This document shows positions 28,522-47,532 of a stretch of 64,000 bases of DNA, in pieces. The stretch lies in the NCBI RefSeq assembly GCF_003334815.1, contig NZ_QOWO01000008.1. The stretch is one strand, 5' to 3'. The notes beneath the pieces were generated by a model. That model was not told the DNA's origin. It worked only from the letters and a program-made list of their open reading frames with translations, and made no database searches. The stretch is from Escherichia coli (GTDB taxonomy: Bacteria > Pseudomonadota > Gammaproteobacteria > Enterobacterales > Enterobacteriaceae). Numbering within the stretch: the stretch's first letter is position 1; each line of letters starts with the position of its first letter. The position numbers and the translations under genes are program-made.

Positions 28522-28554
28522 ATAAAAAAAGCCGGTACTGACTGCGTACCGGCT
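28522..28554 (-). terminator. Rho-independent terminator downstream of mepM
   Basis: Minus strand: GCCGGTAC-gcagtca-GTACCGGC followed by TTTTTTTATTT. Confidence 0.7.
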
Positions 28555-28569
28555 GCGAATGGATGTTAA

Positions 28570-29892
28570 TTAATCAAACCGTAGCTGCGGCACAATCTCT
28601 TTGGCCTGCGCCAGGAATTCGCGACGATCGGAGCCGGTCAGCCCTTCGGTACGCGGCAGTTTTGCCGTCAGCGGGTTTACGGCCTGCTGGTTTATCCATA
28701 CTTCATAGTGCAGATGCGGCCCGGTTGAACGTCCGGTATTACCGGAAAGCGCGATACGGTCGCCACGTTTCACCTTCTGTCCCGGTTTCACCAGAATCTT
28801 GCGCAAGTGCATATAACGCGTGGTGTAGCTGCGACCATGACGAATAGCCACATAATAACCTGCTGCGCCACTGCGTTTGGCAACCACCACTTCACCGTCA
28901 CCCACTGAAAGCACTGGCGTACCCTGCGGCATGGCGAAATCAACACCTCTGTGTGGTGCAACGCGACCGGTCACCGGATTAGTACGACGCGGGTTAAAGT
29001 TAGACGAGATACGGAACTGTTTCGCCGTCGGGAATCGCAAGAATCCTTTCGCCAGACCAGTACCGTTACGATCGTAGAATTTGCCATCTTCAGCGCGGAT
29101 AGCGTAATAATCTTTACCTTCTGAACGCAAACGTACGCCCAGCAGCTGGCTTTGCTCACGTTTACCATCAAGCATTTCTCGAGACATTAACACCGCAAAT
29201 TCATCGCCTTTTTTCAGTTTGCGGAAATCCATTTGCCACTGCATGGCTTTAATCACTGCGCTCACTTCGGCGCTGGTTAAACCGGCGTTTCTGGCGCTGG
29301 CAACAAAGCTTCCCCCGACGGTACCTTTCAGCAGATTGTTAACCCACTCTCCTTGCTGCATTTCGCTGGTCATTTTAAAACCGTTAGCGGCAGTACGGTC
29401 ATAGGTTCGGGTTTCACGACGAGACACTTCCCAGGTGAGGCGCTGCAGTTCGCCGTCCGCGGTTAATGTCCAGGAGAGTTGTTGACCGATTTTCAGGTTA
29501 CGCAATTCTTTGTCGGCCGCAGCCAGTTGGGTGATATCACCCATATCAATACCATACTGATTGAGAATGCTGCTTAGCGTATCGCCAGTGGAAACAACAT
29601 ATTCATGCACGCCCGCTTCACCGGCGATTTTGTCATCCAGTTCGTCCTGGGGAATGGCTTCATCTTCTTGTGCAGCTTGATCAATCGGCTCACTGGCTTC
29701 AGGTAAGAGCGAACGAATTTCGTTCTGTTCCAGCTCAATGGTTTTGACAATTGGCGTGGCATCACGGTGATAAACATAAGGCCGCCAGACAGCGACGGCC
29801 AGAGTAAGAACGGTGAGCGACCCCAACATAACGCGGTGTGGTCGCGGTAAATTATTAAACGCCAGGGCGACAGAGCGGGCTATCTGTTGCAC
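28570..29892 (-). CDS. mepM: Murein DD-endopeptidase MepM (YebA; LysM plus M23 peptidase), 440 aa
   Basis: Full-length [43 protein letters not shown]...; M23 signature HxxxD...HLHYE near C-terminus. Confidence 0.92.
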
Positions 29893-29907: not shown

Positions 29908-30840
29908 TTAATCTCCTTTCAGGCAGCTCGCATACTGGTTGGCTAATTGACTCAGGAATTCTGAATAGCTTGTTTTACCCAGTTTGATATTCGTCCCCAG
30001 GGGATCCAACGTTCCCATACGAACGGATGTCCCTCGTGCGACGCTCTCAACGACCGCTGGCCTGAACTGTGGCTCAGCAAAAACGCAGGTTACTTTTTGC
30101 TCAACCAACTGTGTTCTTATTTCATGTAAACGCTGCGCGCCAGGTTGAATCTCAGGGTTAACGGTAAAATGACCAAGCGGTGTCAGTCCAAACTGTTTTT
30201 CGAAATAGCCGTAAGCATCGTGAAAAACGAAATAACCTTTCCCCTTGAGCGGCGCGAGCTCGTTACCAACCTGCGTTTCGGTTGAGGCTAATTGTGCCTC
30301 AAAATCCTTCAGGTTGGCGTCAAGTTTGGCTCGACTTTGCGGCATAAGTTCCACTAATTTTCCATGGATTGCAACCGCTGTAGCCCGCGCTATCTCTGGG
30401 GAAAGCCAAAGATGCATGTTGAAATCGCCGTGATGGTGATCTTCGTCACTTTTTTCCGCGTGGTCGTGATCATCATCATCGCCGTGAATACTTTTCATCA
30501 GTAGCGGTTTCACATCTTCAAGCTGCGCAATCGTTACCTGCTTCGCTCCTGGTAATTTGCTTACCGGTTTTTGCATAAACGCTTCCATCTCCGGGCCAAC
30601 CCAAACGACTAAGTCCGCGTTCTGTAAGCGTTTTACATCCGATGGGCGCAGTGAATAATCATGTTCTGAAGCGCCGTCAGGAAGTAAAACCTCTGTTTCT
30701 GTTACCCCATCAGCAATGGCAGAAGCGATGAACCCAACGGGTTTAAGCGAAGCGACAACGGCGGCATCTGCGGCCTGTGTTGCACCTCCCCAGAGAGCGG
30801 CGGATAATGCTGCGAAAAGAAGCGTTTTTTTATGTAACAT
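29908..30840 (-). CDS. znuA: High-affinity zinc ABC transporter periplasmic binding protein ZnuA, 310 aa
   Basis: ORF track 29908..30966 over-extended; known start [26 protein letters not shown] at ATG 30838-30840; His/Asp-rich loop [25 protein letters not shown]. Confidence 0.93.
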
Positions 30841-30870
30841 AATGCGACCAATAATCGTAATGAATATGAG

Positions 30871-30892
30871 AAGTGTGATATTATAACATTTC
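30871..30892. promoter_or_regulatory. Zur box in the divergent znuA / znuCB promoter region
   Basis: AAGTGTGATATTATAACATTTC, an AT-rich palindrome matching the Zur operator (GAAATGTTATAATATCACACTT on the other strand), within the 78-bp intergenic region. Confidence 0.8.
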
Positions 30893-30918
30893 ATGACTAC
30901 TGCAAGACTAAAATTAAC

Positions 30919-31674
30919 ATGACAAGTCTGGTTTCCCTGGAAAATGTCTCGGTTTCTTTTGGCCAACGCCGCGTCCTCTCTGATGTGTCGCTGGAACTTA
31001 AACCTGGAAAAATTTTGACTTTACTTGGGCCAAATGGCGCAGGTAAGTCGACACTGGTACGGGTAGTGCTCGGGCTGGTAACACCCGATGAAGGGGTTAT
31101 CAAGCGCAACGGAAAACTGCGCATCGGCTATGTACCGCAGAAGCTGTATCTCGACACCACGTTGCCACTGACCGTAAACCGTTTTTTACGCTTACGCCCT
31201 GGTACACATAAAGAAGATATTTTGCCTGCACTGAAACGTGTCCAGGCCGGGCACCTGATTAACGCACCGATGCAAAAGCTCTCTGGTGGCGAAACGCAGC
31301 GTGTACTATTAGCGCGAGCATTGTTAAATCGCCCGCAATTATTAGTGCTGGATGAACCCACTCAAGGCGTGGATGTAAATGGCCAGGTGGCGTTATATGA
31401 CCTTATTGACCAACTGCGTCGTGAACTGGATTGTGGCGTTTTAATGGTTTCTCACGATCTGCATCTGGTGATGGCAAAAACCGATGAAGTGCTGTGCCTG
31501 AATCACCACATTTGTTGTTCCGGCACACCGGAAGTTGTTTCCCTGCATCCGGAGTTTATTTCAATGTTTGGTCCTCGTGGTGCTGAACAACTGGGTATCT
31601 ATCGCCATCATCATAACCATCGTCACGATTTACAGGGACGAATTGTTTTGCGTCGGGGAAATGATCGCTCATGA
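30919..31674 (+). CDS. znuC: Zinc ABC transporter ATP-binding protein ZnuC, 251 aa
   Basis: Full-length ORF with Walker [13 protein letters not shown] signature LSGGETQR and Walker B LLVLDEP. Confidence 0.95.
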
Positions 31675-32456
31675 TTGAATTATTATTTCCCGGTTGGTTA
31701 GCCGGGATCATGCTCGCCTGTGCCGCGGGTCCGCTGGGTTCGTTTGTAGTCTGGCGTCGTATGTCTTATTTCGGTGATACGCTGGCTCATGCCTCATTAC
31801 TTGGCGTCGCGTTTGGTTTGTTGCTGGACGTGAATCCATTCTATGCGGTGATTGCCGTTACGCTGCTGCTGGCGGGCGGTCTGGTATGGCTGGAGAAGCG
31901 TCCACAGCTGGCGATCGACACGTTATTAGGGATTATGGCGCACAGTGCCCTGTCGCTGGGCCTGGTGGTCGTGAGTCTGATGTCTAATATTCGTGTTGAT
32001 TTGATGGCTTACCTGTTCGGTGATTTGCTGGCAGTGACGCCAGAAGATCTCATCTCTATTGCGATTGGCGTGGTCATCGTGGTGGCTATTTTGTTCTGGC
32101 AATGGCGCAATTTGCTGTCAATGACGATAAGCCCGGATCTGGCGTTTGTTGATGGTGTGAAATTACAGCGAGTGAAATTGTTGTTGATGCTGGTGACGGC
32201 ATTGACGATTGGTGTAGCGATGAAATTTGTCGGTGCGTTGATTATTACTTCGTTGCTGATTATTCCTGCTGCTACTGCGCGTCGCTTTGCCCGCACGCCG
32301 GAACAGATGGCTGGTGTCGCTGTTTTGGTGGGGATGGTGGCAGTGACTGGCGGTTTAACCTTTTCCGCGGTTTACGATACGCCGGCGGGTCCGTCGGTGG
32401 TGCTATGTGCGGCACTGTTATTTATTCTCAGTATGATGAAAAAGCAGGCCAGCTAA
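31671..32456 (+). CDS. znuB: Zinc ABC transporter permease ZnuB, 261 aa
   Basis: Full-length polytopic [39 protein letters not shown]...; 4-bp overlap with znuC. Confidence 0.95.
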
Positions 32457-32475
32457 TCTATCGCTGAACACATTT

Positions 32476-33616
<1,141 letters not shown>

Positions 33617-34300: not shown

Positions 34301-34507
34301 CGAAGGATGAAGAAAACTTGCGAGGTGTCTCGATGAACTGAAAAATGGCACAGTATAATTTATTCTACAGGTTATATTGGAAGCAAATATTTTAATATTA
34401 CATATTCAGTGAAGAAATGCGTAATAAAAATATACATTGCGCCTCCTGAAAAAATAAATTTTTTATGCTATTACGTATATTTGTATCTATTTCAATGGAA
34501 TGACAAC

Positions 34508-42684: not shown

Positions 42685-42784
42685 TGCCGGATGCGGCGTG
42701 AACGCCTTATCCGGCCTACAAAACCTTGCTAATTCAATATATTGCAGGGACTATGTAGGCCTGATAAGCATAGCGCATCAGGCA
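42685..42784. repeat. BIME: two REP palindromes between cmoB and torZ
   Basis: TGCCGGATGCGGCGTGAACGCCTTATCCGGCCTACA and inverted TGTAGGCCTGATAAGCATAGCGCATCAGGCA. Confidence 0.8.
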
Positions 42785-46389: not shown

Positions 46390-46696
46390 AGATTCCTCTA
46401 ATTAAATTACTGGACACCGAAATCATTGTATAATTAAATATACAACGAATTAACCGCTTGCATAATTAGGCACAACACTGCCTGAAACAATCGATAAAGA
46501 ATATGATTTATTACAATGTAATCATTAATTGCTAAGGAATAACCCAGTTGCTATTTAGAATATATATTTATCAGTTTTAGTAATTTAAATCCCATAATTA
46601 ATGTGAATATATACAATATTTTTAGCACAACGCTATGCGCACTGTCACCCGCTCAACAGATCACGGTTATCGTTCGTTTTTTATACTGTTCAGGGA

Positions 46697-47532
<836 letters not shown>

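Follow-up and report, generated by a model that had tools for sequence, protein, structure and literature searches.

Shared repression of znuA and znuCB from a Zur operator in the Escherichia coli bidirectional promoter was reportedly published by Patzer and Hantke between 1998 and 2000 (works of 1998 and 2000), and the 2001 work of Outten and O'Halloran is said to be among the studies of this K-12 znuA/znuCB Zur system. The wider literature has Zur binding one element in the bidirectional promoter and repressing both transcription units, with both promoters active in vivo. Zur is reported to protect ~30 bp with the stoichiometry (Zur2)2, the two dimers sitting on opposite faces of the DNA. 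The exact operator sequence has been reported in EMSA, in footprints, and in a crystal structure with Zur, and the Zur-DNA structure shows two dimers bound cooperatively, as a dimer of dimers, to a 31-bp znuABC duplex (Gilston 2014, PMC4219657). PMC2706843, citing Patzer and Hantke, gives a single protected region for E. coli. In both E. coli and E. amylovora, the region has been described as 78 bp long, with sigma-70 elements that overlap the Zur box. The sequence, footprint, stoichiometry, and atomic structure of the znu operator are textbook knowledge, and its naming from the sequence by a reader without tools, in the earlier note followed up here, is a sanity check on one of the best-characterised metalloregulatory operators rather than a discovery.

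We analyzed a 64,000-nucleotide stretch of E. coli DNA (hereafter, the window) that contains this locus. A 478-bp query taken around znuA/znuC was 100% identical to K-12 MG1655, and with this query the znuA/znuC intergenic region was matched in all 5426 complete E. coli genomes. The genes follow the order lpxM, mepM, znuA (minus strand), then znuC and znuB (plus strand), then ruvB, with znuA divergent from znuC-znuB and all three ZnuABC importer models, as well as the MepM model, scoring far above their curated cut-offs (Table 1). The assignment of the flanking genes to znuA and znuCB, which had been made from the sequence, agrees with both the NCBIfam equivalog scores and the RefSeq annotation. 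Likewise, the length of exactly 78 bp given beforehand for the divergent control region was confirmed by the start codons, which lie at 30838-30840 for znuA (minus strand, CAT on the plus strand) and at 30919-30921 for znuC (ATG, plus strand), and by the gap in the K-12 reference, which is also 78 bp (NC_000913.3, 1942584-1942661) between znuA (1941651-1942583) and znuC (1942662-1943417) in the RefSeq annotation. The znuC stop and the znuB start share 4 bp (ATGA).

Table 1. Coordinates of genes and of observed, predicted, and candidate regulatory features around the znuA/znuCB control region (window numbering).
Feature	Position	Strand	Details and basis
Terminator-like hairpin and T-run	28530-28554	-	9-pair stem, 6 G-C pairs, then TTTTTTTATTT; directly past mepM stop codon
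mepM (yebA)	28570-29892	-	NF008652, 892 bits
znuA, periplasmic zinc-binding protein, 310 aa	29908-30840	-	NCBIfam NF007091 equivalog, 523 bits (cut-off 268); RefSeq
znuA/znuC intergenic control region (bidirectional promoter and operator)	30841-30918		78 bp; sequence, ORFs, RefSeq annotation of identical K-12 DNA
Candidate -35 of znuCB promoter, TCGTAA	30855-30860	+	Conserved TCGT block; TATTAT follows after 18 bp
znuABC operator duplex from the crystal structure with two Zur dimers	30869-30899		31 bp, identical; approximates the ~30-bp footprint
Zur box, 23-bp imperfect palindrome GAAGTGTGATATTATAACATTTC	30870-30892		Axis T30881; consensus, two-dimer motif, PWM, conservation
Predicted extended -10 of znuCB promoter, TGaTATTAT	30876-30884	+	Motif scan; inside Zur box
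Predicted extended -10 of znuA promoter, TGtTATAAT	30880-30888	-	Motif scan; inside Zur box, overlaps znuC -10
Candidate -35 of znuA promoter, TTGCAG	30900-30905	-	Conserved TGCAA block; spacer 14 bp (TATAAT) or 16 bp (TAATAT)
znuC, ABC-transporter ATPase	30919-31674	+	NF007090, 536 bits (cut-off 306); RefSeq
znuB, permease	31671-32456	+	NF007089, 533 bits (cut-off 284)

A 352-aa open reading frame that begins at a TTG at 30966 and runs across the intergenic region was rejected as an artefact of mechanical ORF listing; both RefSeq and the NCBIfam ZnuA model support the start at 30840. At position 30853 the window carries A, the K-12-like allele, where C is found in other E. coli strains, in E. 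albertii, and in most Enterobacteriaceae; the C creates an in-frame ATG on the minus strand, five codons ahead of the annotated znuA start, and RefSeq retains the start of the 310-aa product in strains with this upstream ATG. The K-12 78-mer itself is found at an identity of at least 99% in only 836 of the 5292 matching genomes. Beyond the importer genes, REP/BIME-like repeats (GCCGGATGCGGCGCGAGCG... and ...CCTTATCCGACCTACG) occupy 32470-32600, between the convergent znuB and ruvB, and the terminator scan called no canonical terminator after znuB. Elsewhere in the window, Rfam matches at the gathering score comprised the MicL sRNA (46698-47005, minus strand), the overlapping RyeA/SdsR (RyeB) pair (11357-11501, plus and minus strands), C0465 (60996-61073, plus strand), and ES036 (42720-42762, plus strand), and the 64 kb contained no tRNA genes.

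The control region had been described as centred on a palindrome, quoted as the 22-mer AAGTGTGATATTATAACATTTC. This sequence is present at 30871-30892 and belongs to the Zur box, and two details of the description required adjustment. The symmetric element starts one base earlier, at G30870, as a 23-mer with an 11-1-11 layout, and the palindrome is imperfect, with 9 of the 11 arm pairs complementary; the repeat finder returned no more than a 9-nt core palindrome, since the arms hold two mismatches. Its central placement holds approximately: the intergenic midpoint falls at 30879.5 and the palindrome axis at 30881, and the crystallised Zur complex is centred at ~30884. Symmetry as such was dropped as evidence for an operator: the window contains 12 generic 11-1-11 palindromes with at least 9 of 11 pairs, compared with 8.9±3.5 in Markov-1 simulations, which is no rarer than chance. 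The significance of the palindrome comes instead from its specific sequence.

Comparison with the gamma-proteobacterial 23-bp Zur consensus GAAATGTTATANTATAACATTTC revealed two mismatches at 30870-30892, namely G30873 and G30877, and no other site within three mismatches of this consensus in the 64 kb; 100 shuffles yielded none. The structure-based two-dimer motif TGWNAYRWTATAWYRTNWCA matched exactly at 30874-30893, with 0.12 matches per shuffle expected even at up to two mismatches. The skeletal motif RNNNYRNNRYNNYRNNNY was non-specific on its own (247 occurrences found vs 284 expected) and was discarded as a detector. A PWM scan, proposed earlier as the check on the site with a sub-threshold score as the outcome that would speak against it, was performed with a matrix trained solely on the other three E. 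coli Zur sites (zinT, ykgM, and pliG), located in MG1655, which themselves score 27.8-30.6 bits. The znu box obtained 25.65 bits, compared with 11.7 for the next-best position in the window and with null maxima of 11.3±2.4 per 64 kb (largest, 19.6). The runner-up sites in the PWM and consensus scans, 34384-34406 and 46505-46527, have six mismatches and ~11.4-11.7 bits, the level of the null maximum, and were set aside as AT-rich chance matches. Neither scan located a second Zur box within the 78 bp. Furthermore, the primer 31mer2bpOH-f (Table S2, PMC4219657) reproduces window positions 30869-30899 base for base. The site at 30870-30892 is a Zur operator, with a match far beyond chance.

These data bear on two other readings of the palindrome. 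It could be incidental, an AT-rich overlap of two -10 hexamers with no dedicated repressor, as would suit the chance-level frequency of generic 11-1-11 palindromes in the window and the coincidence of the box core with TATAAT-like hexamers on both strands. We consider this extremely improbable because both the Zur consensus and an independently trained PWM are matched far beyond chance, the conserved positions extend past the -10 hexamers, and this exact DNA has been co-crystallised with Zur; structure and footprints have in practice already refuted it. We give equally little credence to the assignment of the site to Fur, as an iron box, or to another Fur-family regulator. According to the literature, the boxes of Zur and Fur alike are AT-rich inverted repeats recognised by dimers of the Fur family, but the Fur box GATAATGATAATCATTATC has no match with three or fewer mismatches anywhere in the window, its best intergenic match has six mismatches and lies outside the Zur box, and the central TATA, contacted by Tyr45, has been described as Zur-specific.

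We further assessed the conservation of the operator by a ZnuC scan with one genome per species, which provided 80 Enterobacterales loci. A divergent znuA was found at all 80 of them, and the intergenic length was 75-79 bp in 49 of the 52 species with unambiguous start codons. The best Zur box was centred 35-39 bp (~37 bp) upstream of the znuC ATG in 69 of the 80 species. The alignment with other enterics, also suggested in the earlier note, bore out the operator: in 49 aligned sequences, 14 of the 15 columns of the core GT[G/T]ATATTATAACAT (30875-30889) were invariant and its position was fixed, whereas the outer arms drift. The conserved positions that extend past the -10 hexamers are GT at 30875-76 and ACAT at 30886-89. 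Within E. coli and in E. albertii the box is conserved as well. A convincing Zur box was missing at only two of the 80 loci, those of Candidatus Steffania adelgidicola and of an uncultured Enterobacterales MAG. Both retain the znuA/znuC pair with a degenerate or absent box, and mepM was undetected beside znuA in them; the loss of the box may represent regulatory decay in reduced genomes.

Two divergent sigma-70 promoters with overlapping -10 elements are inferred within the control region, the hexamers and start points being predicted for E. coli. The Zur box lies in a zinc-homeostasis gene context, and its overlap with -10 elements on both strands is predicted at the sequence level. In the predicted rightward extended -10, TATTAT does not vary, and 41 of 49 species have the TG; the predicted leftward extended -10 is kept in 47 of 49. 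On either side of the box, the TCGT block (30855-30858) is kept in 42-45 and the TGCAA block (30901-30905) in 44-49 of the 49 sequences, and the distance from TGCAA to the box core is a constant 11 bp, even in species with longer intergenic regions. PznuC and PznuA probably have their -35 regions in the TCGT and TGCAA blocks, respectively, judging from the spacing and conservation of these blocks. A generic sigma-70 -35/-10 scan called no promoter in 30700-31050. This result was not read as promoter absence because extended -10 motifs are present; the silence of the scanner fits weak -35 elements offset by extended -10s, without being proof of them.

Based on these results, we concluded that the 78-bp gap almost certainly comprises two sigma-70 promoters and one Zur operator that serves both znuA(-mepM) and znuCB. 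Under zinc sufficiency, two zinc-loaded Zur dimers would bind cooperatively to opposite faces of ~30 bp (roughly 30869-30899) around GAAGTGTGATATTATAACATTTC. Both predicted -10 elements, TGaTATTAT reading rightward (30876-30884) and TGtTATAAT reading leftward (30888-30880), would then lie within the occupied box, and the predicted start points, at ~30890-30893 for znuC and ~30871-30876 for znuA, would fall inside or at the edge of the Zur-covered region. With both -10 elements and both starts under the footprint, one complex would therefore shut RNA polymerase out of both promoters. When zinc becomes scarce, Zur would shed its regulatory zinc and leave the DNA, so that both units could be transcribed and derepression would yield the high-affinity importer ZnuABC and probably MepM too. 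For zinc-dependent binding by Zur, its dimer-of-dimers stoichiometry, and the repression of both units, we rely on the literature, and the shared-repression step depends on the overlap of the operator with both core promoters, which is predicted for E. coli. The proposal that one operator represses both units, made in the earlier note, is backed by this literature, with the promoter overlap predicted from sequence. Its claim of a single shared Zur site was borne out insofar as the consensus and PWM scans place one box in the 78 bp, with the qualification that two Zur dimers occupy this box. Nor is Zur the sole input, as the literature also reports an activation of znuACB by SoxS.

The leftward unit very probably continues from znuA into mepM. 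The two genes are separated by 15 bp, in which the terminator scan found no convincing terminator, and in 77 of 80 species mepM lies downstream of znuA in the same orientation. The strong hairpin beyond mepM (Table 1) likely marks the end of the znuA-mepM transcript, as judged from its stem and T-run. Induction of mepM by zinc starvation and its co-transcription with znuA have been reported in the literature.

Alternatively, the control region may be more than a single shared operator, with flanking protein-binding determinants that act on one or both promoters. The candidates are TCGT at 30855-58, TGCAA at 30901-05, and the in-phase AT-rich hexamers of 30850-30867, serving as a second Zur contact that lacks a box, like 'site 2' of Y. 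pestis, as the SoxS site, or as the site of another activator. Conservation of the two flanking blocks nearly equals that of the box, with TGCAA held at its constant distance; two separate footprints have been observed in the orthologous 73-bp region of Y. pestis (PMC2706843); and the literature reports both SoxS activation of znuACB and a c-di-GMP-dependent input to the znu promoters in Erwinia. Nevertheless, we regard this arrangement as unlikely. Both blocks occupy the places expected for the -35 elements of the two promoters, which is the simpler account of their conservation, and no second Zur-like site was detected by PWM or consensus. A credible marbox is also lacking: the SoxS/MarA/Rob marbox AYNGCACNNWNNRYYAAAYN has no match with three or fewer mismatches in or near the region, and the best one in 30750-31000 has four, a degree of match that occurs 623 times in the window. 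The single protected region attributed to E. coli in PMC2706843, citing Patzer and Hantke, argues in the same direction. By eye, the left flank and the box (30850-30891) resolve into in-phase AT-rich hexamers (AATAAT, CGTAAT, GAATAT, GAGAAG, TGTGAT, ATTATA, and ACATTT), a phasing that recalls Fur-type hexamer arrays and could relate to the 'site 2' footprint of Y. pestis. By analogy with the second Y. pestis footprint, the notion of one operator may be oversimplified in some species.

A related feature is the asymmetry of the operator. G30877 is a conserved break from perfect symmetry that supplies the TG of the rightward extended -10. That the conserved flanks and this asymmetry exceed what ordinary -35 and -10 elements require, reflecting either a further regulator site or a selected operator asymmetry, is a tentative idea to which we assign a low probability. 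A further site could belong to SoxS or to a c-di-GMP-dependent factor, or could be a second Zur contact of the kind seen in Y. pestis. A selected asymmetry, if real, would set the relative strength of two mutually exclusive promoters and weaken the affinity for Zur, so that znu would be derepressed first in the regulon. The affinity of Zur for the znu operator has been reported as among the weakest in the regulon, >100-fold below those of zinT and L31p, which fits the two departures from the consensus at G30873 and G30877. The femtomolar zinc threshold of the main zinc importer is set by the znu site, and this importer has a part in the virulence of several enteric pathogens.

Compared with described systems, the locus shows no difference of substance from the E. 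coli K-12 znuA/znuCB operator, with which it shares position, sequence, and the 78-bp gap. The Y. pestis znuA/znuCB locus (Li et al. 2009, PMC2706843) resembles that of E. coli in its divergent gene pair, its short intergenic region (73 bp), the overlap of Zur sites with the -10 elements of the znuA and znuC promoters, and the repression of both units by Zur, and the Yersinia loci in our set have the same box core, at -36. In contrast, Y. pestis displays two footprints, sites 1 and 2, the second of which has no Zur box (PMC2706843), and its box has A at the position of E. coli G30877, so that the TG of the rightward extended -10 is missing. Fur-type bidirectional operators share with znu an AT-rich inverted repeat, two dimers on opposite faces, and promoter occlusion; they differ from the znu box, which has no Fur consensus match and carries the Zur-specific central TATA contacted by Tyr45. 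In MG1655, the ykgM Zur box (3785-3812 of the ykgM upstream stretch) ends just 7 bp away from the annotated start codon of ykgM. It admits two readings, in registers offset by 5 bp, and its geometry relative to the gene is unlike that of the znu site. The zinT, ykgM (L31B), and pliG operators belong to the same box family (TGTnAyrwTATAACA...), all four sites align in one register, and all are reported to bind two Zur dimers; however, two diverging promoters are served by the znu site, and the zinT, ykgM, and pliG sites control a single unit each.
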